A stretch of DNA of 41,648 bases, taken from Candidatus Nanohaloarchaea archaeon (GTDB lineage Archaea > Nanohalarchaeota > Nanosalinia > Nanosalinales > Nanosalinaceae). The stretch spans positions 1-41,648 of the forward strand of contig JAWOFP010000009.1 of assembly GCA_046497485.1 (NCBI GenBank), given 5' to 3'. Position 1 is the stretch's first letter. Every line of letters starts with the position of its first letter. The notes below the pieces were generated by a model. The model saw nothing but the letters and a program-made list of their open reading frames with translations. It had not been told where the DNA came from and did no database searches. Positions 1-41,648 of this stretch are shown here, in pieces. The position numbers were made by a program, and so were the translations under genes.

Positions 1-113
1 ATTCTTACTTCAATATCCAATGAGAGATTAAAATCCATATTTTTTAACTCTCAACTAGGCCTAGACTTGGAGAAGTGAAAGTTGATTTAAGGTTTCCAGT
101 CCAGTTTTTTATT

Positions 114-1115
114 ATGGATACTGAGGACTTAATCGAGAAGGTTGTGGAGGCCTCCGAGCTTGAAAAAGATGAATTAGAGGAAAAAGTGGAGGAAAAAATG
201 GAGGAGTTTGAAGGCCTTGTAAGTGAAGAAGGCGCTGTTCATTTAGTCGCTAAAGAGCACGGCGTAGATCTTTCAGAGTCAAGCGCAGCCGACCTAAAAA
301 TTGAGAATATTGTTCCTGAGATGCGTAAAGTTATCATCAAAGGAAAAGTCCTCAATGTTTCCCAGATGAATACTTTTGAGAGAGATGACGACGAGGAAGA
401 CGGAAAAGTCCAGAACTTAGTCCTTGGCGACGATACAGGAACTATAAGAGTTACTTTATGGGACGAACAGACTGAAATCGCTCAGAATGTTGATGAAGGG
501 GATGTAATTGAAATGTCAGGATGCTACACTGTAGAAGATGACCAAGGTAGAGCAGAGTTAAGACTTGGTGATTCCGCACAGGTTAAAATGGTTGATGAAG
601 ACGAAAAGGAAGACTTCGACGATATAGAGCTTCAGTCTACTTCCGAAGTGGCTATCTCAGAGGTAGCAGGTGAAGGGAACAGCTTCAAAATAAACGGAAT
701 GATAATGGCCGTCTACACATCCAACCCATTTTACAGAGTTGATCCTGATTCCGGAGATACAGTCAGGGAAGACGACGATGGAAACTATGTTACAGATGAC
801 GGAACAGAAGTAGATGATCCAGAGGGAAGACTTGCAGTATCCGCAGTTGTAGACGACGGAACAGAAAATATTCGAGCTGTATTCTTCGGTGAACAGGCAC
901 GAGACATGTTAGGCCTGACCGAGGAACAGGAAAAAGAGATGGATACTGACGCAGTTGAAGACGCAGCCGAAGAAGTAAAAGGTAAAGAAGTAGAAGTCGA
1001 AGGAAGAACCCGTTACAACGACTACTTCGGAGCAGTAGAGATACTGGTAAATGAAATGAATGAGTCAAAAATGGAGAACAAGATTGAGGAAATGCTTGAA
1101 ATTCTTGAGGCCTAA
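114..1115 (+). CDS. rpa: Replication protein A / ssDNA-binding protein (DUF2240-like N-terminus plus OB folds)
   Basis: N-terminal EFEGLVSEEGAVHLVAKEHG; OB-fold motifs GDDTGTIRVTLWD and VDDGTENIRAVFF; adjacent to radA. ATG at 114 preferred over GTG at 75 because ATTTAAG at 85-91 sits about 26 nt upstream. Confidence 0.9.
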   Translation: MDTEDLIEKVVEASELEKDELEEKVEEKMEEFEGLVSEEGAVHLVAKEHGVDLSESSAADLKIENIVPEMRKVIIKGKVLNVSQMNTFERDDDEEDGKVQNLVLGDDTGTIRVTLWDEQTEIAQNVDEGDVIEMSGCYTVEDDQGRAELRLGDSAQVKMVDEDEKEDFDDIELQSTSEVAISEVAGEGNSFKINGMIMAVYTSNPFYRVDPDSGDTVREDDDGNYVTDDGTEVDDPEGRLAVSAVVDDGTENIRAVFFGEQARDMLGLTEEQEKEMDTDAVEDAAEEVKGKEVEVEGRTRYNDYFGAVEILVNEMNESKMENKIEEMLEILEA

Positions 1116-1153
1116 AAATTATATTATGAATAACAAGGAGGGAGTTTTTTGAT

Positions 1154-2098
1154 ATGTCAGACGACGTTGAATTAGAAGACATTAAAGGAGTAGGAGGGAA
1201 GACGGCTGAAAAGCTTAGAGATGCAGGTTATGAAGAGCTGATGAGTATCGCAACCATGAGTTCCGGAGAGCTATCTGAGATCGCAGATCTTGGAGACAAG
1301 AAGGCTCAAAGCATCATCACAGAATCCCGAAAACATCTTGACATCGGATTTGAAAGCGGAAAAGACCGTTTCGATAAAAGAAAACAGATGAAGAGAATCA
1401 AGACAAGCAGCGAAAACTTTGATGAGATTCTAGGTGGCGGAATCGAGACTCAGGCTATTACAGAAGTATACGGAGAGTATGGATCTGCAAAGACCCAGAT
1501 CTCACACCAGCTAGCTTGTAATGTCCAGCTTCCAGAGGAAGAAGGAGGCCTTGGACGAGAAGCAATCTACATCGACACCGAAGATACTTTTACGCCTACA
1601 AGAATTGAGCAGATGGCGGAAGCAAACGGCCAAGATGTTGAGGAAACTTTAGAGAACATTCATGTAGCGAGAGCATTCAACTCAGACCATCAGATGCTTC
1701 TAGCAGATGAAGCACAGGAGATCTGCCAGAACAATGATATAGGCCTGATTGTAGTAGATTCACTGACCGCACAGTTCCGATCAGATTATGTAGGTCGTGG
1801 AGAGCTAGCACCTCGACAGCAAAAGCTGAACAAGCACATGAACACATTGTTGAGATTAGCTAATGCACACAACCTGGCTGTACTTGTAACCAACCAAGTC
1901 ATGTCTAACCCAGATCAGATGTTTGGGGATCCTACAAAGGCTATAGGAGGCCACATTGTGGCACACAACTCAGCAGTAAGGCTTTACTTGAGAAAAAGTA
2001 AGAAAGACAAGAGAATCGCCCGTCTAGTAGACAGTCCTTACATGCCTGAAGGAGAAGCCGTCTTCAAAGTCAAGGACGAAGGAATAATCGACGGATAG
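1154..2098 (+). CDS. radA: DNA repair and recombination protein RadA
   Basis: N-terminal HhH (IKGVGGKTAEKL), Walker A GEYGSAKT, YIDTE, Walker B IVVDS, GRGELAPRQQKL, VTNQV, RIARLVDSP; purine-rich SD-like GGAGGGAG upstream. Confidence 0.98.
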   Translation: MSDDVELEDIKGVGGKTAEKLRDAGYEELMSIATMSSGELSEIADLGDKKAQSIITESRKHLDIGFESGKDRFDKRKQMKRIKTSSENFDEILGGGIETQAITEVYGEYGSAKTQISHQLACNVQLPEEEGGLGREAIYIDTEDTFTPTRIEQMAEANGQDVEETLENIHVARAFNSDHQMLLADEAQEICQNNDIGLIVVDSLTAQFRSDYVGRGELAPRQQKLNKHMNTLLRLANAHNLAVLVTNQVMSNPDQMFGDPTKAIGGHIVAHNSAVRLYLRKSKKDKRIARLVDSPYMPEGEAVFKVKDEGIIDG

Positions 2099-3686: not shown

Positions 3687-5174
3687 CTATAAGTTGTAGA
3701 TTTCCCCGTATTTACTCTCTATGTACTCTAGGAAGTAATCGGGGTTTAATTTTTCTCCAGTAGCTTGTTCAATCAAGTCTTCAGTTTTGTACAAGCTTCC
3801 TTTACTATGGATGTTTTCCTTTAACCAGTTTTTAAGTTCTTCAAACTCTCCTTCACTTATTTTTTCATCCAGACTTTCTATTTCTTCTTCCATTGCTTGA
3901 TAGATTTGAGCTGAAAGCACACTTCCAAGCGAGTAAGTCGTGAAGTAACCTATACTACCCTGATACCAGTGGATATCCTGTAGGACTCCTTCAACATCGT
4001 TTTCAGGCCTCATTCCAAGCAGCTCTTCCATTTTATCGTTCCATTTCTCCGGAAGATCTTCCACTTCTATCTCTCCATTCACCAGTCTTCTCTCCAGACT
4101 GTATCTTAAATAGATATGTAGATGATAAGTTACCTCATCTGCTTCTACACGAATCAGATTCTCTTCTTTCACCCTGTTGATAGATTTCCAAAACTCTTCC
4201 TCAGAACTATCTTCAAAGGCCTCAATTTCCTGAAGCTTAGGCGTAAAGTGATTCCAGAAATCCCTAGATCTTGCTACATGATTTTCCCAGAGCCTTGACT
4301 GAGACTCATGGATTGAGAGATCTCTTGAACTACCTGCTGGAAGACCATAATATTCTTTTGGAAGGCCTAATTCGTATAGAGCGTGTCCAAATTCGTGGAT
4401 AGTCGGCAGAATTGATTTTGAGATATCATTTGTGTTAAACCGTGTTGTAATTCTAGCATCGTGCTGATTTCCTACCGTGAACGGGTGTTCTGAAGTATCA
4501 AGTCTTCCTCGATCCCAGTCGTAACCTAAATCACTCAGAATCTCTTTATTCAATTCTAATTGCCTTTCTTTTGAGACCTCTTTTTCGAAGCAGTTTTCAG
4601 GCCTGACATCTGAACCTTTAATTCTGTCGAATAAATCTGTTAATTCATCTCTTAAGGCCTCCATAACTTTCTGCATGTTCTCGAACTCAATATACGGTTC
4701 GTAGTCCTTGAATAGTACTTTGTAAGGCTCTTCATCTGGATCGATTTGTCTGGCGTACTCTCTCTTTAATTCAATTAGTTCTTCAAGATCTTCTTTAACT
4801 ATGTCAAAATTTCCTTCTTTTCTTGCCTTCTTCCATTTATCTAAGGTTTGAGAAGACTTAGATGAGATCTCCTCAATCAGTTCTTGATTGACACTTGAGG
4901 ACCTATCGTGCTCTCTCTTGATCTCTCTGTAAGTGCTTTCATCTCCTTGATCCAAGGATTCAGACTCAACTTCTTGAAGAATCTGACCCAACTCACTTGA
5001 AACAAGTATTTGGTGGCTGAGGCCTGAAAGAACTGAAAGCTGTTGCTGCCGGGCTTCCACACCTTTCTCCGGCATCATAACTTCCTGGTCCCAGTGCAGG
5101 ATTTCTGAGGCCTCCTCAATATTTGTGATTTTCTTGGACTTGTCCTTCAGTTTCTTCAAAGATTCATCGCTCAT
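3687..5174 (-). CDS. Carboxypeptidase, M32 family
   Basis: HPF, HEFGH (HExxH), HESQSRLWEN, IRVEADE, QDIHW, GYFTTYSLG. Confidence 0.96.
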   Translation of the reverse strand: MSDESLKKLKDKSKKITNIEEASEILHWDQEVMMPEKGVEARQQQLSVLSGLSHQILVSSELGQILQEVESESLDQGDESTYREIKREHDRSSSVNQELIEEISSKSSQTLDKWKKARKEGNFDIVKEDLEELIELKREYARQIDPDEEPYKVLFKDYEPYIEFENMQKVMEALRDELTDLFDRIKGSDVRPENCFEKEVSKERQLELNKEILSDLGYDWDRGRLDTSEHPFTVGNQHDARITTRFNTNDISKSILPTIHEFGHALYELGLPKEYYGLPAGSSRDLSIHESQSRLWENHVARSRDFWNHFTPKLQEIEAFEDSSEEEFWKSINRVKEENLIRVEADEVTYHLHIYLRYSLERRLVNGEIEVEDLPEKWNDKMEELLGMRPENDVEGVLQDIHWYQGSIGYFTTYSLGSVLSAQIYQAMEEEIESLDEKISEGEFEELKNWLKENIHSKGSLYKTEDLIEQATGEKLNPDYFLEYIESKYGEIYNL

Positions 5175-5218
5175 AAGTCAAAAATTATAGGTAGAAGATT
5201 AAATTACTGAGGCCTAAT

Positions 5219-6256
5219 CTAGAAATGGTCTTCAAAACTCTCAAAGGCCTCTCCCATGAAATCTACTGCTCCTTCTGCATCCGACATTTTCAGAACTTCT
5301 ATCGCCGTATGCAAGTGTCTAGTCGGTATAACTACTACTCCTGTTGGGACTCCTGAACGGCTTACGCTGATCTCTCCGGCGTTAGTCTTACCAGTGTTGT
5401 AAAGCTTTCTGTGGTAGTTGAAGTCGTTTTCCGCGCTCTCAATCAGCCAGTTACGAACACTTTCCGGAGTAATTACGCCACGGCCTGAGGCCTCTACCAT
5501 GGTGAGTCCAAAGCCGTCGCCTGTGAACTCGTCAGAGTCATCCAAGTCCATGTTAGGAGTATCCCCTGCTCTAGCTGTCTCCAGCACAACGGCCGCATCA
5601 GGCCTTACATCGAAAGCCGATGTTTTTGCACCTTTCCTGCCCACTTCCTCCTGTGCAGAGAACACAGCAACCAGCTCATAGTCTTCGTCAAAGTTCTTGA
5701 AGGCCTCAATCGCAATAGCACAGCCAATTCTATTATCCATTGCCGGGCCTGTCACATAACCATTAATCATTTCTTTGAAATCTCTGTCAAAAGTAATGTA
5801 GTCCCCTACACGAACACCACGGTCTAGAACATCTTGTCTATCATCTGCCCCGATATCGACGAAGGCCTTCTTCATCTGTGGTAGGTCTCCTTCCTCGCTG
5901 TTCTTAACTAGGTGAGAAGGCTTTCCGCCAATAACTCCTGTAAGCTCTTCTCCTTCAGAACTGTGTACAATTACTCTCTGATTGACTATCGAGATAGGAT
6001 ACGCACCCCCAATCTTTGAAACCCGGATAAAACCTTCCTCTGTTATCCTTCTGACACCCATACCGACTTGATCCATGTGGGCATCAATCATCAAAGTCTT
6101 ATCTCCAGAACCTCTCCTAGCGATTAAATTACCGAAATTATCAGTTTCTATACTATCTGCATAATCTTCTAACTCATTTTCAATTACTTCTCTTACAGCG
6201 CTTTCATCGCCCGAAACAGCAGGAGTCTCACAGAGTTCTCTCAGGAGGTCTTTCAT
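5219..6256 (-). CDS. M42 family aminopeptidase (TET-like)
   Basis: VSGDE, DAHMD, MDNRIG, QEEVG, RHLHT. Confidence 0.92.
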   Translation of the reverse strand: MKDLLRELCETPAVSGDESAVREVIENELEDYADSIETDNFGNLIARRGSGDKTLMIDAHMDQVGMGVRRITEEGFIRVSKIGGAYPISIVNQRVIVHSSEGEELTGVIGGKPSHLVKNSEEGDLPQMKKAFVDIGADDRQDVLDRGVRVGDYITFDRDFKEMINGYVTGPAMDNRIGCAIAIEAFKNFDEDYELVAVFSAQEEVGRKGAKTSAFDVRPDAAVVLETARAGDTPNMDLDDSDEFTGDGFGLTMVEASGRGVITPESVRNWLIESAENDFNYHRKLYNTGKTNAGEISVSRSGVPTGVVVIPTRHLHTAIEVLKMSDAEGAVDFMGEAFESFEDHF

Positions 6257-6336
6257 ACAGAACTATTAAGGATATATATTTTTTAGTTCAACCTTTCAGT
6301 CAAGGCCTAAATATCTAAACAACAAATACTTCTTCT

Positions 6337-7455
6337 ATGAACAAGACCAGAGATCAAAAAATTAGAGAATTCGCCGAAACCCTTGTAGACCACTCAGTAG
6401 AAGTGGAAGAGGGCGAAAACATTTACCTTAAAGCAGAGTCAATAGATGTGAAGCCTCTCTTCGATGAAGTCAGAAAACTGATAATTGAGAGAGGAGCCTA
6501 TCCTCACGAACACTTTATCTACGATTCTCAGATCGGGCGTTCAGGCCTCGATTACGACTGGATCAAACACGGCTCAAAAAAGCAGATGGAAAATGTGTCC
6601 GAGGCTAAAAAGAAAGAGCTGGAGGAGATGGATGCTTTCATAATGATAAGCGGCCGTGACAACGAAAGAGAGTTAAACGGGTTAGACCCAGAAAAGATAA
6701 CTTTGAGGAAAAAAGAGACACAAGAACTGTCGGATATAATTCACGAAGACAGATGGGTTCTAACGCGTTATCCAACAGATGCTTCTGCGCAGAACGCAGA
6801 CCTACCGACACAGGAATACGAAGATTTCTTGCTTGATGCAGTTACAGAAGTAAACTGGGATGAGATGGCGTCTAGAAACGAAAAAATTAAGGCCTGTTTC
6901 GATCAAGCAGATAAAGTTAGAATAGTCTCGGAAGGCACAGATCTAGAATTCAGTTTAGAGGAGAGGGAAGGGATCTCCAGTACTGGGAATCATAATATTC
7001 CGGACGGCGAGGTCTTCTACGCACCTTTAAAGAAATCAGTAAACGGTAAAGTCAGTTTCACCTATCCTGGCGTAAAGAGCGGAAACCAGGTTGAAGACGT
7101 AGTTCTAGAGTTCGAGGACGGGAAAGTAGCGGAGTTCTCTGCTTCAAAAAACGAGGAATATTTAGAGGCGCAGTTAAACACGGATGAAGGCGCCAAATAC
7201 CTTGGGGAGTTCGGAATAGGAACAAATATGCAGATCGACCGATTCATGAATGACCTAGGCCTCGATGAGAAAATAGGAGGTACAGTCCATCTTGCTCTAG
7301 GAAACGCATACGAAGAATCCGTCCCTGAAAACGAGGAGAAGAACAATTCCGCTATTCATTGGGATATTGTAAAGGATTTAAGAGAAAATGAGGATGGAGG
7401 AAAGATCTTCTGTGATGGAGAGAAAGTATTTGAAGACGGAGACTGGCTGATCTAG
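6337..7455 (+). CDS. Aminopeptidase, M29 family (AmpS/AmpT)
   Basis: NIPDGEVF, GEFGIG, DEKIGGTVHLALG, SAIHWD. Confidence 0.94.
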   Translation: MNKTRDQKIREFAETLVDHSVEVEEGENIYLKAESIDVKPLFDEVRKLIIERGAYPHEHFIYDSQIGRSGLDYDWIKHGSKKQMENVSEAKKKELEEMDAFIMISGRDNERELNGLDPEKITLRKKETQELSDIIHEDRWVLTRYPTDASAQNADLPTQEYEDFLLDAVTEVNWDEMASRNEKIKACFDQADKVRIVSEGTDLEFSLEEREGISSTGNHNIPDGEVFYAPLKKSVNGKVSFTYPGVKSGNQVEDVVLEFEDGKVAEFSASKNEEYLEAQLNTDEGAKYLGEFGIGTNMQIDRFMNDLGLDEKIGGTVHLALGNAYEESVPENEEKNNSAIHWDIVKDLRENEDGGKIFCDGEKVFEDGDWLI

Positions 7456-9224
7456 CTTATCTCCTCTTCTGCTTTCTCCAAATACATTTCATACTCTTCC
7501 ATTGCTTTTTCTACAGGCCTTGAAGTGGTTAAGTCTGCTCCAGCTTCCTTTAATGATTCAAGGCTGTACTGGCTCCCTCCTTTCTCTAGGAAATCTAGGT
7601 AGTCTTCCGGTCCTTCTTCCAGTATTTTCTGGGATAGCACGGTGCCGGCTGAAAGGCCTGTCGCATACTTGTAGACATAGAAGTTGTAGTAGAAATGCGG
7701 TATCCGCATCCATTCTCTAGATATAGTGTTTCCTACCTCTGCTCTCTGATAGTAGTTTTTCTTTAGTTCAAGATATTTTTCATCCAGTTTATCAGGGCTT
7801 AAGGCTTCTCCACTTTCTATCTCTTCGTGAATCCATTTTTCGAACTCTGAGAACATTGTCTGGCGGAAAACTGTGCCTCTAAACTTCTCCAATGCATAAC
7901 TCAGTACATGCATTCTGAATTCTTTGTCTTCTACTGTCTCCAGTAAGTGTTTAGTGAGTAAGGCCTCATTTGTAGTTGAAGCAACTTCAGCTTGGAAAAT
8001 AGTATAGCCGCTTTCGTGATAGGCCTGGTTTTCACTGCTTAGCTTTGAGTGCATTGAATGTCCCAACTCGTGAGCCAGTGTGAACATTGAGGAGACATCG
8101 TTCTGATAGTTCAACAGGATGTAAGGTTTGGAGTCGTAGCTTCCTCCGGAATAAGCTCCTGACCTCTTTCCTTTGTTTTCGTAGACATCAACCCATCCGT
8201 TTTCAAGACCTTCCCTAACCTGTTCCACATAGTCTTCTCCCAAAGGCTTCAAAGCTTCGAGTATATGTTCTTTGGCGTCTTCATACTCTATTTCAGGGCT
8301 TTCTGAATCAGCGACCGGCATGTAGATATCATGCATCTCTAACTCCTCTAGGCCTAGAGTCTTTTCCTTTAATTCCAGGTGTCTTTGGAAAAGATCCAAG
8401 TTTTCTCTGACAGCTTCGATTAAGTTATCATTAACTGATTCAGAGATTTTATCCGGCTTGGTTGAGGCCTGACGCGCAGAATCAAAGTCTTTGATTTCAG
8501 CCTCTCTAACATTCTTGTTCACATTTTTCTCCAGCGTAGTCGTGATAGTATTTCGATAGTTTGAGAAGGTCCCGTACATTTCTTGGAATACTTTTTCCCT
8601 GAACTCTCTGTCCTGATGCTTCATGAACTTAGTGAAGTTTCCTTGCGTGAGTTCTACTTTGTCTCCTTCAGGCCTTTCAACTTCTGGAAAAGTAAGATCT
8701 GCATTGGTTAAAATCGAGTAGGTTTCGTGCGCCGCATCAGTCACATCTCCAAGCGATGCAAGAATCCTTGACTCTTGATAAGTCAGCTTATGTTGCTTCA
8801 TTCTGAACAAGTCATTCAGATAGAAGCTGTATTCATCAACTTTTCCTTCTTCCAACCAATTTTCTACTCTGCTTTTATTCTGGACAATTTCCGGCTCAAT
8901 AAAACTTATTGATTTCTCAAACTCTGTGTTCAAGGCCTTGATCTTTGACACAAGCTCTCTAGGCTTTTGCTCTCTTGTATCCTGGTCTCGGAGCATGAAA
9001 GCATACTTTTTCAAGTTCTCAATCCTTCTATCCAGCCCAAACCGTTCTTCCAGTACATCATTCAGTCTTTCAGGCGAATCTGCCGTAGTTCCTTCAAACT
9101 TATCGAAATCCTCTACCTGGCCTTTTACCTGTTTGAACTCTTTACTCCATTCTTCCTCGGAAGAGTACATATCTTCCAGATCCCACTTGTACTCATCTCC
9201 GATCTCCGATCTCTCATCTACCAT
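7452..9224 (-). CDS. pepF: Oligoendopeptidase F (M3B)
   Basis: YKWDL, GKRSGAYS, HELGH (HExxH), AEVAST, RIPHFYYNFYVYKYATG. ATG at 9224 preferred over the TTG at 9245. Confidence 0.95.
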   Translation of the reverse strand: MVDERSEIGDEYKWDLEDMYSSEEEWSKEFKQVKGQVEDFDKFEGTTADSPERLNDVLEERFGLDRRIENLKKYAFMLRDQDTREQKPRELVSKIKALNTEFEKSISFIEPEIVQNKSRVENWLEEGKVDEYSFYLNDLFRMKQHKLTYQESRILASLGDVTDAAHETYSILTNADLTFPEVERPEGDKVELTQGNFTKFMKHQDREFREKVFQEMYGTFSNYRNTITTTLEKNVNKNVREAEIKDFDSARQASTKPDKISESVNDNLIEAVRENLDLFQRHLELKEKTLGLEELEMHDIYMPVADSESPEIEYEDAKEHILEALKPLGEDYVEQVREGLENGWVDVYENKGKRSGAYSGGSYDSKPYILLNYQNDVSSMFTLAHELGHSMHSKLSSENQAYHESGYTIFQAEVASTTNEALLTKHLLETVEDKEFRMHVLSYALEKFRGTVFRQTMFSEFEKWIHEEIESGEALSPDKLDEKYLELKKNYYQRAEVGNTISREWMRIPHFYYNFYVYKYATGLSAGTVLSQKILEEGPEDYLDFLEKGGSQYSLESLKEAGADLTTSRPVEKAMEEYEMYLEKAEEEIS

Positions 9225-12922: not shown

Positions 12923-12993
12923 ACATAATCTTGTATATCTTTAATTACAAAGGTTTCGATTCTTAAGCTTCAGAAACTAATTTTAAGGCCTCT

Positions 12994-13898: not shown

Positions 13899-13937
13899 AA
13901 ACCAAGTTTTCAGTTCTTTAATTAAATAACTAGGCCT

Positions 13938-14612: not shown

Positions 14613-14655
14613 CACTCAATACATAACATTCACCTATACAAAACTCAAATACTAG

Positions 14656-14730
14656 GCCTCGTTGGCTCAGCCTGGCTAGAGCGGTTCCCTCGTAAGGAAC
14701 AGGTCCCGGGTTCAAATCCCGGACGGGGCT
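14656..14730 (+). tRNA. tRNA-Thr(CGT)
   Basis: Acceptor GCCTCGT/ACGGGGC, D arm GCTC/GAGC, anticodon arm GTTCC-CT CGT AA-GGAAC, T arm CCGGG-TTCAAAT-CCCGG, discriminator T; no intron, CCA not encoded. Confidence 0.97.
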
Positions 14731-24313: not shown

Positions 24314-24552
24314 TGTTCCACCTTCTCCTCTAACTCATCTTCAGTAAGTTTAACCTTTAACTTTTTTCTAGGCCTCTTATGACCTTCAATCAATCCAACA
24401 TTAGTATCTAATATATCTGAAAGCCGTTCAACCAGTTCAGTGTTCGCTCTATTATTCTCTGCTTCTTCCGTCAACGAGGCCTTCAACATGTGGCCAGTCT
24501 CTAAATCAAATTTGTCCTGACCCGTCTCGACTTTCACATAGATCTCTGTCAT
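24295..24552 (-). CDS. DUF167 (UPF0235/YggU) family protein
   Basis: IYVKV...AENNRANTELV...GHKRPRKKL. Confidence 0.8.
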   Translation of the reverse strand: MTEIYVKVETGQDKFDLETGHMLKASLTEEAENNRANTELVERLSDILDTNVGLIEGHKRPRKKLKVKLTEDELEEKVEQWQKQR

Positions 24553-24568
24553 AAATAGTAAAAATAGA

Positions 24569-24637
24569 GGCTACCTGGCAACATAGACAGTCATTCCAGT
24601 CCCTCGAAGGTCCTGCCTACTGACTTAACAGGTAGCC
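24569..24637 (-). ncRNA. 69-nt K-turn hairpin RNA, H/ACA-like pseudouridylation guide candidate
   Basis: 9-bp terminal stem, internal pocket, 8-bp upper stem, K-turn (CAG-GA-CC / GG-AAU-GA-CUG); TATTAA about 26 nt upstream and a T5 tract downstream. Confidence 0.7.
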
Positions 24638-24691
24638 AAGAAAACATTAAAGGAGAACTCTTAATACATTTGACAAAACCATACATAGATC

Positions 24692-27600
24692 TTAATTTAT
24701 GGTTGCACATACTTCGTCGCTGTCAGCTTCTCCAGCAACATTATATGGTCTAACTTCAACACATATTTGGTCTCCAGAACCCCAGCTACTATCGGAAATC
24801 TGCTCATTTACTTCTGACGACGGCATATCAACCACATTAGACTCCTTAATCGCGCCAACACCATAATATATATTAAATCCTTCAATATCAGCAGAACTGC
24901 TATAGCTGGCCCAATCAATAGATATAGTATTTGTATCTACTACCTCTATATCCTGCACAGTAAGATTTTGAGCTCCTGCGTCATCTTTGGCCTGCATAGC
25001 AATACTATAGTTACCTGGGCTGGGAAAAGAGCGAGATGTAGTTTCTCCGTTCTCCTCAAATAACCCGTCCTTATCCCAATCCCATTTAACACTAGAGACG
25101 CTTCCATCGAGGTCATTACTTGAAGAAGCGTCGAAAGTTACAGAGCCCCCGACTCTAGGACTACTTGGAGAAAAGTCAAAATATGCTAAAGGAACGCAGT
25201 TCTGCTGTTCTAGCTGGGCAGATTGATTCACATTTTTTAGAATAGGATAGTTATTACAGATACTCTCTGAATCGCCAGATTCTACTACGCTCCAGTTCGA
25301 GTTAAAATTCATATCCCCCATATTATCTTTAGCCGACATACCTTGCATCTCTCCAGTAAATAAACCTGTAGAATTTAAATTACCGCCATTAGTCTGCTCT
25401 GACGAATTTATATCCCAGTAGCTTGAAGTAATGCTCCCCTCATTTTCACCAATTAAACCGCTTACATTTCTTTCCCCGCTGACTTTACCGGTAGAATAAC
25501 TATCAGATATAGATCCATAGCCCTTATGCCCAACTAGACCCCCTACAGTTCTTGAGCCATTTACATCGCCCGTAGCATAGCTATTAGACACAGAACCCTC
25601 AACATTGCCTATTAAACCGCCAGCCCATTCAGGACTATTTACATCTCCAGCAGCATAACTACTAGAAACAGAACCAAAATTTTCTCCTATTAGGCCTCCT
25701 GTAGCATCTTCTGCCCCTGTTACATCCCCGACAGCATAACTATCAGAAACAGAACCATAGTCCTTATATCCGATTAGGCCTCCCACCCCGCTCTCTCCAT
25801 AAACATCTCCTGTGGCAGATGTATTAGAAATAGATGTTCCGCAACAGGAACCTCCTATTAGGCCTCCTACACTGTAACCTGCTCCCGATACGTTTGCGGT
25901 CGAACGACTATTAGATATAGAATCGCCATAATCAAAACCAACATATCCAATTAAACCTCCTGTATCTCCGGAATATTTGCTGGAAACAATACCCCCTGTA
26001 GAAACTGAAGAAATTGTTTCGCCCTCATTATATCCTATTAATCCTCCGACTGAGCTTGCCCCAGTTACATTAATTTTATTTAATGCCACATTCTTTACAG
26101 AAGAATCTCCGCCCAAATATCCAAACATACCGACTTCGCTGCTTCTATAACGGTTAATATACAGACCATTGATCGTATAATTATTGCCTTGAAACCCTCC
26201 TAAAAATTGATTATCATAGTTAGGGCCTACAGGATTAAAACCCAAGTAGGTGTCCATTCCAATTGCATAATTCCAGCTTTCTGTATCAGTACATTCGACA
26301 TCATTACTCAATTCATAATATGCTGATAAATTGTTCTGCATAGCCTGTAATTCATAACATGTGCTTATTGGATACGGATTTGTTGATGAGCCGTCTCCTG
26401 ATGAAAAGATAGTTACTTTTTCGGTTACAGAACCATTATTGTTTCCATCGCTTATAGTTAAATTGATCTCGTATGTACCAGGGCTAGAAAAACTATGAGA
26501 CGCTGTCTCACCGCTGCTAGCTTCTCCATCCCCAAATTTCCAGGTGTAGCTATCAATCGATCCCTCTGGATCTACGCTTGAAGAACCATCAAACTCTATC
26601 GACTGTTCTGGCAGAAAAATCTCGTCAGAGAAAGTAAAATCTGCGATAGGAGTACAATCATTTGTTGAAACCCCACTACTTTGATTAAAACCTTCTAAAT
26701 TAGGATAATCTCCAGAGATGGCAACCCATTTATTTTCAAAGTCCAATCGGTGCATGTGACAGATTGCCGATTCTCCGTGCATATCTGAGGTATTCAAAGG
26801 TTTTCCTCCTCCGCTACCTATCTCTCCGAAAGATTCCAAATCCCAGTAACTTGATGATATACTTCCAGAATAGTTATCCCCAACTAAACCTCCAGGATAA
26901 GCATCAGCAAATACATTACCTGAACTGAAGCTGGAGGAAATCTGCCCAAAACGATTTTCACCTACTAATCCTCCAACATTAGTCTCTCCCGAAACAACCC
27001 CCTCAGAAAAACTAGAGCTCAAGTCACCGCCATTTTCACCCACCAACCCTCCAACATCAGCCTCTCCCGAAACAACCCCCTCAACAAAACTAGACTTTAC
27101 TTCGCCTTCCCAAAGATGACCTACTAGACCCCCAACTCTATCATTTCCCGAAATATTTGCATTTGTCAAACCAATATTCTCTATATCCGAAAAAGAATCA
27201 TCCACGTCACCCATTAGCCCAGTATAAGTGCCGTTTCGGTCGATATATAAACCATCAATAGTATGATAGTTCCCGTTTAAATCGCCCTTAAATTTATGAT
27301 TATCGTGATTTTGGCCTATAGGGTTGAAGCCTAAATAATGCTCTTCTCCTGTTGTATTATACCTTATATATAATTCGGCGGAAGTATCATTTTGAAGCTC
27401 TAAAGTTCCACTTTCTGCATCTACAATATCAACATCAACTTCAGAACGATCATCAGAATCTCTAGCAAGAATTACTTGGTCTATTGGAGCATTAGCTGTC
27501 TCAAATGTGTATCCTGCGTCCAAACCAGCAAAGTTTCCTATTTCTTCCTCATAACCCGAATTCCAGTTTATCGTATCTGAGCAATCAATATTATCAACTA

Positions 27601-27784
27601 ATTCATACTCATCAGTAAGGCCTCCCTCAGACCCATATTCTGGATTCATATTCTGGAGTTGTTGACAGGTAGAAATTTCATATGGATTAGAAGAAGATCC
27701 ATCTCCTCCTTCAAAAGCCGATGCTGAAGTTGTTAGCGATATTGATATTATTAACCCTAATATAAGCTTGCTTCTTAATTTCAT
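24692..27784 (-). CDS. Secreted surface protein: two GLUG-repeat/PKD modules and a C-terminal FN3-like domain
   Basis: Signal peptide; GDGSSxNPYxISTC twice; many VGGL(V/I)G repeats; PKD motifs FDGSSSVDPEG..YTWKFGDG and FDASSSNDLDG..WDWDKDG. Confidence 0.9.
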   Translation of the reverse strand: MKLRSKLILGLIISISLTTSASAFEGGDGSSSNPYEISTCQQLQNMNPEYGSEGGLTDEYELVDNIDCSDTINWNSGYEEEIGNFAGLDAGYTFETANAPIDQVILARDSDDRSEVDVDIVDAESGTLELQNDTSAELYIRYNTTGEEHYLGFNPIGQNHDNHKFKGDLNGNYHTIDGLYIDRNGTYTGLMGDVDDSFSDIENIGLTNANISGNDRVGGLVGHLWEGEVKSSFVEGVVSGEADVGGLVGENGGDLSSSFSEGVVSGETNVGGLVGENRFGQISSSFSSGNVFADAYPGGLVGDNYSGSISSSYWDLESFGEIGSGGGKPLNTSDMHGESAICHMHRLDFENKWVAISGDYPNLEGFNQSSGVSTNDCTPIADFTFSDEIFLPEQSIEFDGSSSVDPEGSIDSYTWKFGDGEASSGETASHSFSSPGTYEINLTISDGNNNGSVTEKVTIFSSGDGSSTNPYPISTCYELQAMQNNLSAYYELSNDVECTDTESWNYAIGMDTYLGFNPVGPNYDNQFLGGFQGNNYTINGLYINRYRSSEVGMFGYLGGDSSVKNVALNKINVTGASSVGGLIGYNEGETISSVSTGGIVSSKYSGDTGGLIGYVGFDYGDSISNSRSTANVSGAGYSVGGLIGGSCCGTSISNTSATGDVYGESGVGGLIGYKDYGSVSDSYAVGDVTGAEDATGGLIGENFGSVSSSYAAGDVNSPEWAGGLIGNVEGSVSNSYATGDVNGSRTVGGLVGHKGYGSISDSYSTGKVSGERNVSGLIGENEGSITSSYWDINSSEQTNGGNLNSTGLFTGEMQGMSAKDNMGDMNFNSNWSVVESGDSESICNNYPILKNVNQSAQLEQQNCVPLAYFDFSPSSPRVGGSVTFDASSSNDLDGSVSSVKWDWDKDGLFEENGETTSRSFPSPGNYSIAMQAKDDAGAQNLTVQDIEVVDTNTISIDWASYSSSADIEGFNIYYGVGAIKESNVVDMPSSEVNEQISDSSWGSGDQICVEVRPYNVAGEADSDEVCATIN
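26954..27094. repeat. Tandem GLUG-unit duplication, 78-bp period
   Basis: 26954-27016 and 27032-27094 match at 56 of 63 positions. Confidence 0.85.
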
Positions 27785-28299
27785 TGCTCTGTCACCACCA
27801 ATTCCGAGCTACTCATTGGATCCGGCAAGGATTGAGTATCTCCTGTAGAAGAACCTGATTCGGTAATTTCAAACCTGCCCGAAATTTCACCTGATACGCT
27901 CAAATTTTCCAACCCGCCAGAATCATAATTAATGGAAACATCTAAATTATTGGCAGAGTCGCCTTCAGTAACATTAGCCAGAACCAAATCTTGAGACTCT
28001 CCTACCGAAATAACTTTATCTCCAGACCATTGAGTCCAGGACTCGCCTAGAGAGATATTTACTGAATTGATCTCCGCATTATCTGAGGCAGAATTTCTGA
28101 TCAATAACTGCAAATTACTATCATTAGTTGTTCCAAAATCTTCTATAGTCAGGTCATCCCCATCAAAACCACTAATTGATTGGATGCTTTGATTCTGTAC
28201 TATCGCAAAAATAGCTGAACCTGTAATTGCAACTACAAGCAGCATCCAGCCATAAGTCATCAAATACTCAATCGCAGACTGGCCTTTTCCTAAATACAT
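27781..28299 (-). CDS. Class III signal peptide (type IV pilin-like) protein
   Basis: KG/QSAIEYLMTYGWMLLVVAI: KG cleavage site, Glu at +5, hydrophobic helix; ATGA-coupled to the GLUG gene. Confidence 0.85.
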   Translation of the reverse strand: MYLGKGQSAIEYLMTYGWMLLVVAITGSAIFAIVQNQSIQSISGFDGDDLTIEDFGTTNDSNLQLLIRNSASDNAEINSVNISLGESWTQWSGDKVISVGESQDLVLANVTEGDSANNLDVSINYDSGGLENLSVSGEISGRFEITESGSSTGDTQSLPDPMSSSELVVTEQ

Positions 28300-28403
28300 A
28301 AATAAAATTTTGTTCTATGTAATTTAAATTTATGCAAACATAGTTTTAGACACATTCAAGATCTAAACTAGCATAAGAAAATAATTTGACGCCTAAAAAT
28401 TCT

Positions 28404-29081
28404 TTATTGGAAGAAAACTCCTTCATCAACCGCAGGCTTGAAAGCTGCTTCCCGCGTCTTGCTCTGTAATGGTTCTTCCCCATGATACTTCCTTATGTAC
28501 TCCATGTATTCGATCAGTTTCTGGCGGGCGAACTCCCCATCATGCTCTATCTGTTCTTCTGCTATCATTTCCAGATAAGCCCATTTGAAGAAACGGTTCA
28601 ATGGATAAGCAAGGAATCTCGGCAGCATCTTGACTCCTCCCGGAATACTGTATTTTATTCGTGCATCGACATTGTACTCAACCATACAGAAATCATTGTC
28701 GCCAGAAGGAGGATACTTGGTCTCGATAGATGGCTCTAGCTTAAACTCTCCCTTCCCGCTGGGAAGATCATCAGAGTTCTCCATATCTGCGGCGAAGTCT
28801 CCCGAATCTAGGTTCTCGAAATAGAATTTTTCATAAGGCCTGCCCATATCGATGTTCCTGAAAACATATTTGTGCTCTGAGTAGATTTTAGGGACATTTG
28901 GGCTTTCATACCATTCTACTTTGTTGCTGACACGGACCCAGTGGCCGTCAAATAAATGGAAGTCGCTCCAGATATTGTCTCTCTCCTCGAATTCTTCTTT
29001 TTCATAGTCGCTCTTGTAAGTCTCCGGAGTTCTAAACCACGGCAGGATATTCTTTTCTAGAAATCCTAAGTCTTCACTCAT
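28404..29081 (-). CDS. Hypothetical protein (paralogue C)
   Basis: Acidic ORF whose C-terminus resembles the two upstream genes. Confidence 0.75.
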   Translation of the reverse strand: MSEDLGFLEKNILPWFRTPETYKSDYEKEEFEERDNIWSDFHLFDGHWVRVSNKVEWYESPNVPKIYSEHKYVFRNIDMGRPYEKFYFENLDSGDFAADMENSDDLPSGKGEFKLEPSIETKYPPSGDNDFCMVEYNVDARIKYSIPGGVKMLPRFLAYPLNRFFKWAYLEMIAEEQIEHDGEFARQKLIEYMEYIRKYHGEEPLQSKTREAAFKPAVDEGVFFQ

Positions 29082-30732: not shown

Positions 30733-30846
30733 AATAAATGAGTAAGAGATGAAACCTAATTAATCTTGTGCATTTAGATCTGAAAAACCAGATATATCTG
30801 AAAAATAGAGTTCTAAGAAGAAATTAAAGAAAATTTAAGGCCTTAT

Positions 30847-33854: not shown

Positions 33855-33875
33855 TATATCCTTCACTGCTTCTGT

Positions 33876-33924: not shown

Positions 33925-33971
33925 AAAATGGCGTTAAATGAGTTTAAAGTCTCAGCTTGATCGCTGGGACT

Positions 33972-37163: not shown

Positions 37164-37787
37164 TTATCTTATCAATTGTATATTATAATATTCTATCTCT
37201 AAGCCTTTTTGGTTTTGCTCATAGCAGCTGTCTGGAGAACTCAGGAAAGGAATTTCTTTAAGATAAAAAACCTCATCGACCACTTTTTCAATGTCTGCCA
37301 TCACATTTCTCGACTTGAAAGGCGCAGCAAGATGAATTTCCTCGAAACCTTTTTTGAGCAAAGACCCCGCAACCGCTGCTTCTCTAAAACCGCTCCCAAG
37401 TCCTTCACTGGCTATAACTGCGCTTCCTTTCGGTTTCAGACTTGTTTTCTGATTCAGGCCTATCGAGCTACCGCCTAAAGAACTTGAAGTCAGTTCAGCA
37501 GACTCCTCAATGTAAGACCTTTCAACACCTAACTCATCAACAAGCCGATCTTCCACCCAGATAGTACCGTCTTCAACGACCGCTCCTACATCAGCGTACG
37601 GTATATCCTCAGCTGAAATAAAGTCCGATAAAAGAACCTCAACATCAGCATTCTGCTCCTTTGCAATCTCCAGGCCTATATCCAAGGCCTCAGCATAAGG
37701 TATAACAACCAGATCGACTTCTGCTTTACCTTTAAGAAAATTTGATACTTCTCTACCTGCATGACTGCGATCATCAAATAAGCTCAT
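37164..37787 (-). CDS. Phosphoribosyltransferase-like protein, degenerate
   Basis: FDDRSHAGR start, GAVVEDG, IASEGLGSG in the place of VDDGxATG, LAAP. Confidence 0.7.
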   Translation of the reverse strand: MSLFDDRSHAGREVSNFLKGKAEVDLVVIPYAEALDIGLEIAKEQNADVEVLLSDFISAEDIPYADVGAVVEDGTIWVEDRLVDELGVERSYIEESAELTSSSLGGSSIGLNQKTSLKPKGSAVIASEGLGSGFREAAVAGSLLKKGFEEIHLAAPFKSRNVMADIEKVVDEVFYLKEIPFLSSPDSCYEQNQKGLEIEYYNIQLIR

Positions 37788-37880: not shown

Positions 37881-40800
37881 TCATGTGAACTGGCTGAGAC
37901 CTGACTGTCTCTGATCCTTCCCAAATAAGCTTTGAAGCGACCGATTCATCATCAGTACCTGCTGCCTCAAATAAGGAGTAATCTCATACTCCTCAATAAT
38001 ATCCTTAGAAGGCTGCATATACTTCTTGATAGTCCCTTCAGAAATCGTCAGTAATACCTTTCCTCCGCACTCAGGGCACTGAGCCGTAGTCTTACCAGTC
38101 GGAGCAATAGTCTGACTAGTCATAGGCACACGCCTGAACTTCTCATTACAGTCAACACAACGCATCTTCTGTTTCGAGAAACTCCTTAAATTCCCTCTAA
38201 TATCCGGCAAAAAGTGTTTCTGAAGCAGCAGCTCCGCTACATTATTCTCATCTACAGCAGAAATCTTCTCGCCCAATTTGAGCTGTGCACGAGTCTTCTC
38301 GCTCATCTCATCCAAAGTAACATACTCAGACTGATCAGGACCATCATCAATATTCGTAGTCTCATGCGTAAAACCATGAGTAAACGGCTCATCACTATGC
38401 ACAATATCCTCGCCAATCTCAATCTCGCAATCAATCTCCCAGGGCTTCTTATACTCCTGAGTCTCCTCATAAAACTGGAGAGGATACTCACTGACTGTCT
38501 CAATCGCCCAGGCCTCATCATCAATCTCATCAGGATTAAGAACGTTTGAAAGGATTAGTGCGGCATCCATGGTTCTAGCGCCCACCATGTTCGGTAAGAA
38601 GTCTCTTGAGAAGTTTAGAAGCCCATCCATCAGCAATAAGATAGCGTCCTCGTCTCCATCACAGTTTGATGAAAGTATTCTGTTTGTCGTCATGAAATTA
38701 TGGGTTTCTTTAACTTCTATGTCGTACATAAATTCTTCATCAGAACTAACAGTTTCTATTTCCTTGATTTCTTCAAGTTGATCATACCCTTCATTGTCTA
38801 CAATCAGCATATCTCCTTTTTCTAAGCTTCTTCCTCTCTTTTTGCCCTTAGAAGTTTCCATCTTATGGTCTGGAAAGATATCCAGTTGTTTTCCTTCTAC
38901 AGTCTTCACTCTCAATTTAAAATTAGGCGCTTCCATTCTATACGCTTTAACCGCTTTAGAAATTACAAGATTAGAAGCGGATTTAGCATCTTCATCGAAA
39001 GATAGAACCTCAATATCTATATCTTTTTCAATTGTTCCGCTACTATCGGCCTCTTTTGGGTTAGATCCTTGTTCAAAAATCTGCTCCAGTGTTAATCCTG
39101 TAGGCTTGACAGCTACATCTCCAGGAAGACAATTTCTTCTCTTTGCTGCGTGCCAGTATGGGTGTGCGTACATTCCTTTGGCTCTGGTAAATCCTATTAT
39201 ACGCCCTACTGTTCCTCCTGATGTGTGGGGTGCTAGACCTATTACTAGTTCTCCTATTAAATCTTCTTTGGACTCGAAGTTATAGTATGGTTCGACGTTG
39301 TAGAATTTATCCATTAGTTCGTCGATGAAGTTAGCTACCTTTACGAAGTAATCTGAGGCTGCTAAAGATTTATCTGATTCCGGGATTATAATGTCTTGAG
39401 GTTTCAAGGCCACTACCTGGTCATCTGATTCTAGCGGATTTCCGTCTACATCCTCTTCATAACCAAGTTCTTTCAGTCTTTCAACCGGTGCATTAATTTC
39501 TCTTGGCTTAAAATGGGTGATCGGGATGTCTAATGCGTCGTAGCGGACAGTTGCGTCTTTGTTAACATATAGGTCATGTTTTTCTCTTAGAAGGCCTTTT
39601 TCAATAGGCTCTACATGCTTATGCTTTGATGTCATTCCTCTGAATGATTTAAGTAGTTCTGGAGGCTTGTTCATCCCTAGGTTTTCTAGTGCGTCGTCCA
39701 TCATCGATCTTACATCAATTTTGGTCTCTTTATACCTTTGGAACCTTTCATTACCGCAGCTATCGCATTCCTCAGGCTCCTCATCGTACTGATTGAAACA
39801 GCTACTGCAGAACCAGATCGGATCAGCCGGGGCATCGCATTCACGACAGAAAGCATAATGAGTTACTTCTCCGCACTCTGTGCATTTGTTATGGATTATG
39901 TCCTCTTCCACAACTCCTTTTTCTCCATGCATCGTCTGATTATAGGCTGCTGTCAAGTTCCTCATACGGCCTCCTTCTTCCTTTCCACACGGGAACAGCA
40001 TCTGAGGCTTACCAGTCAAAGTCCTCTTCTCTGCTTTCTCAGGCCTACCCATTCTCGCACCCATGTAATGAGTGGACTGATCGCCGATCTTAAGGCCTGA
40101 AACATGTTCTATAAACTCCTTAATATCGTCCGAATTTTCTATATTATCTAATTTATCTGAGTGATCATTTTCTAGGTCTAGAAGTATTTCTAAGGCCTCT
40201 CTATCATTTCCTTCAACTTCCATCTGGTCGTTGTGAGGTATGTAGGCTTGTTCCAGTGCTTTCTTGGCTTTCTCGCTCTTGAAGCTCTCTCCCCTTAACT
40301 TCCTATAAAGCTGTTTGAAGTTTTCAGGTTCGACATCGCTCCAGAAATGTGTCCATCTTGGATGGAATCTGATATCTAAAGCTCTTGAAATCTTTTCAGC
40401 TTCTCTAGGTGACGGATCTCTGTCTGAAAAGTCTTTACCCAGCTCCATATCTTTCTCATCCAATGCCTTTTCAAGTTCTAGATCCCACCATTCGCTGACA
40501 TAAGGGGAAGGAAGTAGTCTCTTTCCGTTTTCTATGAATTCTCCGTAAGTAACAAGCATGTCACCCATGAAGAGTATTTCATCGACTTGGTCTTCGATTT
40601 CTTTTGCTCGTTCTCTAGTATCTACTCTTTCGACTTCTCCGCTTTCAAGCCTTACAACTGGAGGCTCTATACTATCACAAGGGCTTCCAACTGTGGCTTT
40701 ACCAGGATACTCAACTTTTAGCTGTGTTCCAATTGCGATAAATCTCTGGCTTATCTCCATAGTCGCAGGATGGAAGGAAACCGCTGCTAAACCATTGGTT

Positions 40801-41648
40801 CTGGAATGACCGTATCTTAGCCTGAAGCCTCCTTTTTTACCTGGATGCCCGAATACAGGCCTTCCAGCAGTTAACGATCCCAGGTATTTGTCACTAGCAG
40901 TATACTTATGCTCTTCCTCATCTTCGCTTTCTTCGTCATCATCTCCTGAACTGTGGATCTCTTTCTGAAGTTTGAGATAGTCCTTGATCCATTCCCAGTG
41001 TTCCAGTCCGAAGTCGCTACCCCATTTCTCTATTCTCTTCTTGATCTTAGGAGCCTTCAATGGTAGGCCGTCTAAGTAGACTAGACACATACCTCCTCTG
41101 ATTTTGTTGGTCTTAACTCTATCTAAGTCCTTATAATTGGAAACATCGAGATCTTCAGTCGGTGAGCCTGTAACTTCGACAGGAACATTCTCCGCAATCT
41201 TTTTAGTCTCCTCTCTTGTCGGATTATACTGCTTAGCCGTAACTCTATTGTAATAATCTTCTACTTCGGTCGCATACCGGTCAATAACTGTATCAGAAGG
41301 CTTGAACTTGTCAAGATCTACACCCATCCTCACATAGTCTGCGATTAATACGCTCATAGCGGATGCAGTTCCGCCCGCAGAACGGATAGGCCCTGAGTAG
41401 TATACTGCTAAGTATTTGCTTCCATCATTATTTTCCCTAATTTTAACTTCTCCTATACCTTCTAGAGGCGCAGTGGTGATTCCTCCTGTCATGTAACTGA
41501 CCCCTACTCTTAGGCCTGCGTCACATGCTCTTTCTCTCTCATCGAATTCGTGGAATCTTCCTTCGGCTATTTCCCTTGCTATCTGGAAGGCTACACGCTC
41601 ATCATTCTTTCCATACTCTTCTTCCAGTTCTCTTATCCTATCCGGTAC
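37881..41648 (-). CDS. polC: DNA polymerase D large subunit DP2, 5'-truncated by the window edge, intein-containing
   Basis: GPIRSAGGTA, GGFRLRYG, RMGRPEKA, HAAKRRN/CDGDED, zinc-finger CxxC pairs, C-terminal PIP-like QSGLSQF; the frame stays open from 41492 to 41648. Confidence 0.98.
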   Translation of the reverse strand, partial: VPDRIRELEEEYGKNDERVAFQIAREIAEGRFHEFDERERACDAGLRVGVSYMTGGITTAPLEGIGEVKIRENNDGSKYLAVYYSGPIRSAGGTASAMSVLIADYVRMGVDLDKFKPSDTVIDRYATEVEDYYNRVTAKQYNPTREETKKIAENVPVEVTGSPTEDLDVSNYKDLDRVKTNKIRGGMCLVYLDGLPLKAPKIKKRIEKWGSDFGLEHWEWIKDYLKLQKEIHSSGDDDEESEDEEEHKYTASDKYLGSLTAGRPVFGHPGKKGGFRLRYGHSRTNGLAAVSFHPATMEISQRFIAIGTQLKVEYPGKATVGSPCDSIEPPVVRLESGEVERVDTRERAKEIEDQVDEILFMGDMLVTYGEFIENGKRLLPSPYVSEWWDLELEKALDEKDMELGKDFSDRDPSPREAEKISRALDIRFHPRWTHFWSDVEPENFKQLYRKLRGESFKSEKAKKALEQAYIPHNDQMEVEGNDREALEILLDLENDHSDKLDNIENSDDIKEFIEHVSGLKIGDQSTHYMGARMGRPEKAEKRTLTGKPQMLFPCGKEEGGRMRNLTAAYNQTMHGEKGVVEEDIIHNKCTECGEVTHYAFCRECDAPADPIWFCSSCFNQYDEEPEECDSCGNERFQRYKETKIDVRSMMDDALENLGMNKPPELLKSFRGMTSKHKHVEPIEKGLLREKHDLYVNKDATVRYDALDIPITHFKPREINAPVERLKELGYEEDVDGNPLESDDQVVALKPQDIIIPESDKSLAASDYFVKVANFIDELMDKFYNVEPYYNFESKEDLIGELVIGLAPHTSGGTVGRIIGFTRAKGMYAHPYWHAAKRRNCLPGDVAVKPTGLTLEQIFEQGSNPKEADSSGTIEKDIDIEVLSFDEDAKSASNLVISKAVKAYRMEAPNFKLRVKTVEGKQLDIFPDHKMETSKGKKRGRSLEKGDMLIVDNEGYDQLEEIKEIETVSSDEEFMYDIEVKETHNFMTTNRILSSNCDGDEDAILLLMDGLLNFSRDFLPNMVGARTMDAALILSNVLNPDEIDDEAWAIETVSEYPLQFYEETQEYKKPWEIDCEIEIGEDIVHSDEPFTHGFTHETTNIDDGPDQSEYVTLDEMSEKTRAQLKLGEKISAVDENNVAELLLQKHFLPDIRGNLRSFSKQKMRCVDCNEKFRRVPMTSQTIAPTGKTTAQCPECGGKVLLTISEGTIKKYMQPSKDIIEEYEITPYLRQQVLMMNRSLQSLFGKDQRQSGLSQFT
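38664..39131 (-). mobile_element. Mini-intein (156 aa, no homing endonuclease) in DP2
   Basis: Interrupts KRRN|CDGDED; starts CLPGD, block B FPDH, block F MYDIEV..THNF, ends LSSN followed by Cys. Confidence 0.95.

Follow-up and report, generated by a model that had tools for sequence, protein, structure and literature searches.

A highly iterated AGGCCT palindrome in nanohaloarchaea accompanies an AddAB-like helicase-nuclease and may act as a Chi-like stop site

Analysis of a 41,648-nucleotide stretch of Candidatus Nanohaloarchaea archaeon DNA (GCA_046497485.1, contig JAWOFP010000009.1; hereafter the window), together with its source genome and relatives, revealed that the palindromic hexamer AGGCCT is under strong pressure that depends on the distance between copies, has no accompanying methylase, and occurs as an iterated word only with a full-length AddAB-like enzyme and never with the nuclease NurA. 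Tentatively, and with nearly as much chance of holding as of failing, AGGCCT is read as a palindromic Chi-like site at which an archaeal AddAB-type helicase-nuclease stops or is attenuated during DNA end resection. Such a role as enzyme stop signal may be proposed because the word was found only in relatives carrying the AddAB-like enzyme instead of NurA.

The window held 144 dispersed copies of AGGCCT (the first at position 57 and the final one at 41512-41517) with a mean spacing of ~290 bp and 46 copies within the first 10 kb, exactly reproducing the count in an earlier note on this DNA. Base composition predicted 6.6 copies, and 100 dinucleotide shuffles of the window gave a mean of 9.84 ± 3.09 and a maximum of 20. 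The gene calls contained 131 copies occupying all three codon phases as the note had described (72 as xxA-GGC-CTx, 42 as xAG-GCC-Txx, and 17 as AGG-CCT), compared to a mean of 16.1 and a maximum of 27 in 200 shuffles preserving each protein and codon usage, upholding its argument that amino acid usage was insufficient to explain the word. Its view of a HIP1-like word maintained at the DNA level by an active process was likewise borne out. The excess survived both dinucleotide and codon shuffles. Six of the seven copies it had placed between genes were outside the gene calls, but the seventh (33908) falls inside the ORF 33501-33926 if a TTG start is used and was not confirmed as intergenic. Density along the window was uneven with 14-20 copies per 4 kb until 24 kb and 5-11 per 4 kb thereafter, and the longest gap free of the word was 25860-27618.

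The source genome (G000; 967,558 bp in 66 contigs) carried 3,249 copies compared to order-1 and order-2 expectations of 220 and 512, respectively, with each contig containing 1.83-5.84 copies per kb. The ratio of observed copies to the order-2 expectation was 6.35 for AGGCCT and 1.63 for the next palindromic hexamer. Coding copies numbered 2,914 compared to 406 in 20 synonymous shuffles (~1/7), 65-78% of the positions able to encode the word were filled (521/670, 992/1,522, and 1,401/2,171 by frame), and the density in spacers (3.41 per kb) matched that in genes (3.33 per kb). Codon or amino acid usage as the cause was ruled out by the synonymous and codon-preserving shuffles. The complete chromosome of the relative G010 similarly contained 169-235 copies per 50-kb window. 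The word was exactly six bases and among its nine one-off variants only AGGCCC was clearly enriched in both G000 (2.14) and G010 (3.08), compared to 0.89 and 1.01 in the word-poor genomes G052 and G014. AGGCCC had no consistent strand or replichore polarity along the complete G010 chromosome.

AGGCCT is conserved at orthologous sites beyond protein constraint. Among 136 genes from the first 150 G000/G010 orthologue pairs with at least 65% identity, sites with identical residues shared the word in 255/357 cases compared to 59/554 for ten control palindromes, and four-fold sites of the two genomes were only 38% identical. The force behind the word is strong enough to shift protein sequences, because amino acid triplets able to spell AGGCCT exceeded residue shuffles 1.39-1.90-fold in both G000 and G010, with ratios of 0.73-1.11 in G052 and G014.

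The spacing of the word was governed by the distance to its neighbors. Gaps shorter than 15 bp occurred at 0.17 of expectation in G000, and the occupancy of codable sites rose with the distance to the nearest copy from 18% at 6-14 bp (n=109) to 52% at 25-34 bp and 77% at 150-199 bp (n=528), with 43, 68, and 85% in the same three bins of G010. The rise was smooth to ~150 bp and equal whether the neighbor was upstream or downstream, and five of five control palindromes lacked a comparable rise. Occupancy dropped again with a neighbor beyond 500 bp (0.48 and 0.62), which was read as recently acquired genes. In models fitted to sites with both neighbors within 600 bp (3,428/4,228 and 4,367/5,047), the product of two saturating terms of ~80-90 bp outperformed the hard footprint and additive-odds models by 38-58 log units (48 and 58 for the hard footprint), and a function of the product of the two flanking gaps fitted as well as any four-parameter model tried. 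No helical phasing was visible in G000 or G010. How much a site is worth thus varies with how far away the next one lies, although the fits do not single out one process.

Comparison of 70 genomes of the phylum, using the reversed word TCCGGA as control and a rich/poor cut set in the observed gap after the data were seen, identified 13 genomes enriched 4.3- to 17-fold and 57 at most 1.63-fold. The rich genomes were every member of genera g1, g7, and g28 plus two of six in g2 (G005 and G051 rich; G050, G052, G053, and G054 poor), all within the 50 genomes of family f1 (13 rich, 37 poor). In a PolD tree of 23 genomes, one clade (89/90) united the seven rich genomes sampled with G004 and three poor members of g2 (G050, G052, and G053), and G005 and G051 were sisters inside g2. 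Three metagenome loci fetched by a separate route had 79, 49, and 91 copies in 22.5, 13.7, and 16.9 kb (3.5-5.4 per kb). The enrichment was thus not confined to one assembly, a doubt raised by the earlier note, and presence in all 66 contigs, 12 other genomes, and three of three metagenome loci ruled out an assembly artifact. The ratio of AGGCCC to control was 0.83-3.96 across the 13 rich genomes and <0.75 across the 37 poor ones; the word was looser in genus g28 (G047, G048), where G047 had 1,188 AGGCCC beside 2,478 AGGCCT.

The AddAB-like pair was among the 130 of 1,065 G000 ORFs that were shared with the whole rich genome G010 yet weak or absent in 961,684 bases (51 of ~60 contigs) of the poor G052, many of the 130 at G052 contig ends. 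The two genes overlap elsewhere in the source genome, outside the window (G000:C62, 17323-22499), and are translationally coupled. The AddA-like subunit combines a UvrD helicase with a weak PD-(D/E)XK nuclease match and scores far below the NCBIfam AddA/AdnB family cut-offs. The AddB-like subunit has relatives in haloarchaea and Methanohalobium and no sequence match in the PDB, and an AddB fold is predicted from its Atlas model, the Atlas neighbors being of helicase-nuclease type including an 'ATP-dependent helicase/nuclease subunit B family'. Other candidates were discarded in a five-genome panel: the Cas3 of a type I-B locus was not in rich G005 and G047, a 250-aa ORF was not in rich G005, a VRR-NUC nuclease was also in poor G014 and G042, and both a 111-aa ORF and the window's ComF-like gene were absent from rich G005 yet found in poor G042. 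An AbrB-like protein was in 32/50 family genomes, common in poor ones, and not found in the complete rich G048. As a separate observation, a ubiquitin-like protein, a ThiF-like activator, and a TtcA-like tRNA thiolase (G010:C1:85728, 522111, and 820873 with G000 orthologues; names that we presume from sequence) were absent from the syntenic places of G052.

AddA was present in 13/13 rich and 14/37 poor family genomes (27/50 in total), including rich assemblies only 68-82% complete, and the AddB N-terminus in 13/13 rich and 16/37 poor genomes. Because G000 seemed to be without Mre11/Rad50, it was predicted that genomes lacking AddAB use HerA-NurA, and a search for NurA identified it in 21/50 genomes, comprising 0/13 rich and 21/37 poor. 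Both enzymes occurred together in 3/50 genomes and neither in 5/50, such that the AddAB-like pair and NurA are nearly mutually exclusive in family f1. The division was repeated within g2, where the rich G005 and G051 had AddA and no NurA and the four poor genomes had no AddA, three of them carrying a long NurA form (456-468 aa compared to 321-363 elsewhere). From the G052 nurA-herA-mre11-rad50 operon, only an ATPase paralogue matched G000 or G010. On a small number of independent events, AddA would be necessary (13/13 rich) but not sufficient (14/37 poor) for the word. Eleven poor genomes had AddA but lacked NurA, and in eight of them the best AddA copy ended at query residue 749-790 of 889, before the nuclease domain. 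At the DNA level, the AddA frame in G018, G042, and G044 stopped ahead of the nuclease with no separate nuclease piece within the locus; these three fell in an AddA clade (100/99) whose full-length members (G000, the three metagenome loci, G004, G005, and G010) were all rich or intermediate. In the bacterial enzyme, Chi acts by attenuating the nuclease of the AddA subunit.

The methylation-coupled mechanism and the orphan methyltransferase suggested in the earlier note found no support, as no DNA methyltransferase was common to the rich genomes and MutS was nearly absent from the family. PF00145 was found in 7/31 genomes, namely G000 and six poor ones, and in 0/6 other rich genomes, two of which are single-contig; the G000 enzyme was therefore rejected as the cause of AGGCCT. 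This sole C5 methyltransferase of G000 lies in a McrBC-like island on contig C53, the contig with the lowest AGGCCT density, where it is divergent from genes that we take to be McrB-like AAA and McrC-like genes and appears as a defense island (G000:C53:98-4274). A PF01555 search revealed no shared N4/N6 methyltransferase, with a strong match among five rich genomes only in G047 and a below cut-off tRNA methyltransferase-like gene in G000, and scanning G000 and G010 for methyltransferase motifs gave no further DNA methyltransferase. MutS repair was discarded as driver, since MutS was in 1/50 family genomes (a poor one), and NucS as discriminating factor, since it was in 46/50, rich and poor alike. 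Mycobacterial NucS has been argued to work by short-patch repair (PMC11551744) and no claim is therefore made that NucS feeds AddAB. The available text of two nanohaloarchaeal methylome papers (PMC10266531, PMC11001535) reports GDGCHC and does not mention GGCC.

The earlier note had also offered a binding protein as an explanation, for which the best candidate found here is a translocating helicase-nuclease, an option that the note had not raised. In the proposed mechanism, the rich lineages would trim double-strand breaks with the AddAB-like pair in place of HerA-NurA, a role suggested by the distribution of the two systems. By analogy with bacterial AddAB, the enzyme would load on a broken end, unwind and degrade the DNA until it meets AGGCCT, and leave a 3' tail for RadA, with the palindrome acting from either side. 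A new AGGCCT might be favored because less DNA is lost at a break, each site saving DNA in proportion to its flanking gaps, or because copies with the site halt degradation and convert those without it. Its gain shrinks with another site near on either side, as in the observed spacing, presumably for the same cause. Lineages with HerA-NurA-Mre11-Rad50, or with an AddA without nuclease domain, do not keep the word. Reading of AGGCCT in the rich lineages may stem from a change in AddB/AddA or from a partner protein.

Several observations weigh against a Chi-like role. The rich genomes are kin in one clade (89/90), which reduces the association to one or two switches in g2 plus one or two truncations of AddA, and by genus it was 4/12 compared to 0/10 (p = 0.07). 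Full-length AddA without NurA occurred in poor G007, G017, and G016 with no AGGCCT enrichment, and no substitute iterated word was found in 6-27 kb each of G007, G013, G016, G017, and G018 or in 160 kb of G014 (AGATAA in G007, 13 compared to 1.7, also ranked high in a genome with NurA and seems to reflect codon usage). Three of the eight genomes with a truncated best copy (G044, G046, and G013) have a second, longer AddA copy of divergent type, G004 (g1) was enriched merely 5-fold though the pair is present, and G010 encodes an SbcCD-like pair. Neither AddA nor AddB of rich genomes formed a clade, and no convincing rich-specific residues were found in either subunit, including a comparison of 13 nanohaloarchaeal AddB N-termini; in AddAB, Chi is bound by a pocket in the inactive helicase domain of AddB. 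The spacing rule is not specific, since saturating additive logit and local-density kernel models fitted about equally to the gap product, with the kernel best, and saturation close to existing copies is also expected under Elhai's methylation ratchet (PMC4390886, section 3.4). The Chi sites known to date are polar, being read on one strand, and codon use largely accounts for how abundant Chi is in E. coli (10.1101/2021.07.08.451572). AGGCCT lacked such polarity: the main word is palindromic, AGGCCC had no consistent replichore skew, and AGGCCC neighbors exerted no repulsion (-0.03 ± 0.25 compared to -1.71 ± 0.08 for AGGCCT) where a polar AGGCCY model had predicted half-strength repulsion; that model was rejected. 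Finally, the follow-up covered ~10 of the 130 subtraction candidates, the subtraction is blind to a reader kept in G052 with altered specificity or missing from the G000 assembly, and G000, G010, and G052 served to find the AddAB candidate and are not independent of it.

Among the rival explanations, an unidentified dimeric DNA-binding protein that organizes or protects the chromosome, each site serving ~50-90 bp per side and AddAB merely sharing the history of the clade, is unlikely but deserves attention. A symmetric reader would suit a fully palindromic word that tolerates a single substitution at its end (AGGCCC, 2.1-3.1-fold), the failure of AGGCCC neighbors to behave as half sites, the fit of saturating coverage models to the spacing, and the equal density in genes and spacers, whereas a hard footprint and visible phasing were lacking, the DNA-binding candidates tested failed (e.g., the AbrB-like protein), and the NurA exclusion and AddA truncations would be left unexplained. 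Bacterial uptake sequences accumulate by molecular drive, and DNA uptake or exchange favoring fragments with AGGCCT could act likewise. The even spacing and the word retained by imported G052 genes (described below) agree with such a drive, but a range of ~100 bp is short for uptake fragments, gene subtraction gave no uptake receptor, and the distribution of the ComF-like gene did not match, making this explanation improbable.

A ratchet of the HIP1 type would combine a methyltransferase acting on GGCC or AGGCCT with methyl-directed mismatch repair that fixes site-creating mutations. It would account for a palindrome whose single enriched one-off variant is altered at the terminal base, like that of HIP1 (PMC4390886), and for the saturation mentioned above. 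It is unsupported because the methyltransferase and MutS, both needed, are missing, and must be regarded as decidedly improbable. Highly improbable is a priming or loading site for replication spaced like Okazaki fragments: although the 250-300 bp spacing and the gap-product rule fit any process with a cost growing by distance to the next site, the subtraction revealed no replication gene separating rich from poor except ones at G052 contig ends, AGGCCC lacked a consistent strand polarity along the G010 chromosome, and the AddAB/NurA pattern is not explained.

AGGCCT resembles HIP1 (GCGATCGC) and the alternate HIPs of cyanobacteria as a hyper-abundant short palindrome in genes and spacers in all frames (PMC4390886, PMC5861425), conserved at orthologous positions beyond codon effects, tolerant of an end-base variant, and lost in some lineages; selection on HIP1 and a kilobase periodicity have been described (PMC5861425). 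In contrast to HIP1, AGGCCT is archaeal, 6 bp long, present ~once per 250-300 bp, has no cognate methyltransferase or MutS, shows a strong short-range spacing rule, and tracks a resection enzyme. With the Chi sites of AddAB/RecBCD (B. subtilis AGCGG, E. coli GCTGGTGG) it shares being a short genome-wide word alongside a helicase-nuclease of AddA/AddB architecture, but it is palindromic, exceeds codon-preserving shuffles 7-fold, and reaches the same density in spacers and genes, and its putative reader is, as stated, remote from the AddA/AdnB families and from PDB sequences. AGGCCT works like a highly iterated palindrome without the methyltransferase feature and may work like Chi without the polarity. 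The AddA-like subunit has the same layout as UvrD-PD-(D/E)XK (pfam12705) fusions of bacteria and mesophilic archaea, predicted to act like RecB/AddB in recombination (PMC5704561); its gene here overlaps that of an AddB-like partner and its presence nearly excludes that of NurA, and the available text of that study proposes no target sequence. The same six letters form StuI-type restriction-modification sites such as in Alcanivorax borkumensis (PMC12128166), unlike which the word is here 13-fold over the reversed control with no such methyltransferase shared. HerA-NurA is given as the archaeal resection route in PMC7690668, the available text of which does not mention AddAB or Chi. The literature searched (few subscription journals, no supplements) contained no report of AGGCCT iteration in nanohaloarchaea or archaea, of AddAB/Chi in archaea, or of NurA in nanohaloarchaea.

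DNA moves between lineages, because imported genes of the poor G052 still carry the word, with 0.65-1.11 copies per kb in genes at least 78% identical to G010 and 0.27-0.35 in the rest. AGGCCT-rich patches (C2:4676-7409, C9:11124-12800, C21:12781-14769, and C42) lay mostly in genes 80-85% identical to G010 and represent recent imports from a rich lineage. No fossil excess of word-permitting triplets was found in G052 (0.92-1.11), so that the word may have been either gained or lost within g2. Conversely, a cysteine-synthase/decarboxylase-like cluster at G010:C1:890000-896000, also shared with G000:C50, had 2 copies in 6 kb and is probably a recent acquisition. AGGCCT and AGGCCC were strongly depleted in G034, G042, and G056 (55, 97, and 73 copies compared to 344-491 for the control), a pattern that would fit restriction of GGCC in these genomes. 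Among at least 122 loci listed in a search for word-rich viruses, the 25 densest had no match to the proteins of these archaea; one viral contig stretch (L239) had 22 copies in 10 kb (1.5 expected), was not rich in acidic proteins, and did not match these archaea. The three available CRISPR spacers (106 bp) were too few for a virus comparison.

The window encodes RadA, RPA, PolD, and acidic proteins (features in Table 1), and this gene content together with a homologue labelled Candidatus Nanohaloarchaea assigns the genome to the nanohaloarchaea, in line with the archaeal origin assumed in the earlier note. The RPA-like and RadA genes presumably specify the recombination proteins needed once an end has been resected. 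Five peptidase-like genes were clustered at 3687-9245 and 11969-12922, which we take to be of carboxypeptidase, M42, aminopeptidase, and oligopeptidase types. The PolD large subunit (37881-41492, minus strand) contained a ~155-aa insert (residues 789-942) with intein-like ends that most relatives lack or replace with a longer one. ACGT was strongly avoided in the window (8 compared to 51 expected) and G000 (549 compared to 1,129-1,402) and not in G010 or G052, possibly because a restriction-modification system targets it or once did so.

Table 1. Positions of AGGCCT copies and related features in the window, and of the AddAB-like genes elsewhere in the source genome (G000).
Feature	Position	Strand	Length	Remark
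Spacer AGGCCT copy	57..62	.		upstream of RPA-like gene
Spacer AGGCCT copy	5210..5215	.		between two peptidase genes
Spacer AGGCCT copy	6303..6308	.		outside gene calls
Spacer AGGCCT copy	12986..12991	.		outside gene calls
Spacer AGGCCT copy	13932..13937	.		outside gene calls
Spacer AGGCCT copy	30838..30843	.		outside gene calls
AGGCCT copy overlapping tRNA-Thr(CGT) 5' end (tRNA 14655-14731)	14654..14659	.		
Word-poor stretch, 4 AGGCCT in 4.35 kb	24483..28835	.		over 1030-aa secreted protein and pilin-like gene
Two AGGCCT copies 13 bp apart	37672..37690	.		such close pairs at 0.17 of expectation genome-wide
RPA-like gene (75-1115) and RadA gene (1154-2098)	75..2098	+		context only
AddB-like gene	G000:C62:17323-19833		836 aa	C-terminal PD-(D/E)XK nuclease, PF12705
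AddA-like gene	G000:C62:19830-22499		889 aa	UvrD helicase and weak PD-(D/E)XK; PF00580, PF13361, weak PF12705

The puzzle posed by HIP1, of genomes filled with one short palindrome, has been open for decades, and the comparison of close relatives with and without AGGCCT that differ in their break-trimming machine provides a named candidate enzyme. The near-exclusive distribution of AddAB and NurA in family f1 was not found in the literature searched and stands even if AddAB is not the reader. In the broader proposal, which is a serious possibility albeit one somewhat more apt to fail than to hold, this would be the first archaeal Chi: nanohaloarchaea would be split into HerA-NurA and AddAB resectors, and one AddAB lineage would read a palindromic stop word that fills two thirds to three quarters of its codable positions and has rewritten its proteins. 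If true, a reader would for the first time be identified for a highly iterated palindrome, in this case a palindrome that needs no methylation, and if the Chi-like reading of AGGCCT holds, the word would be usable as a clock for gene import, as imported G052 genes still carry it. Chi biology would then extend to archaea, with a repair signal able to change protein sequences.

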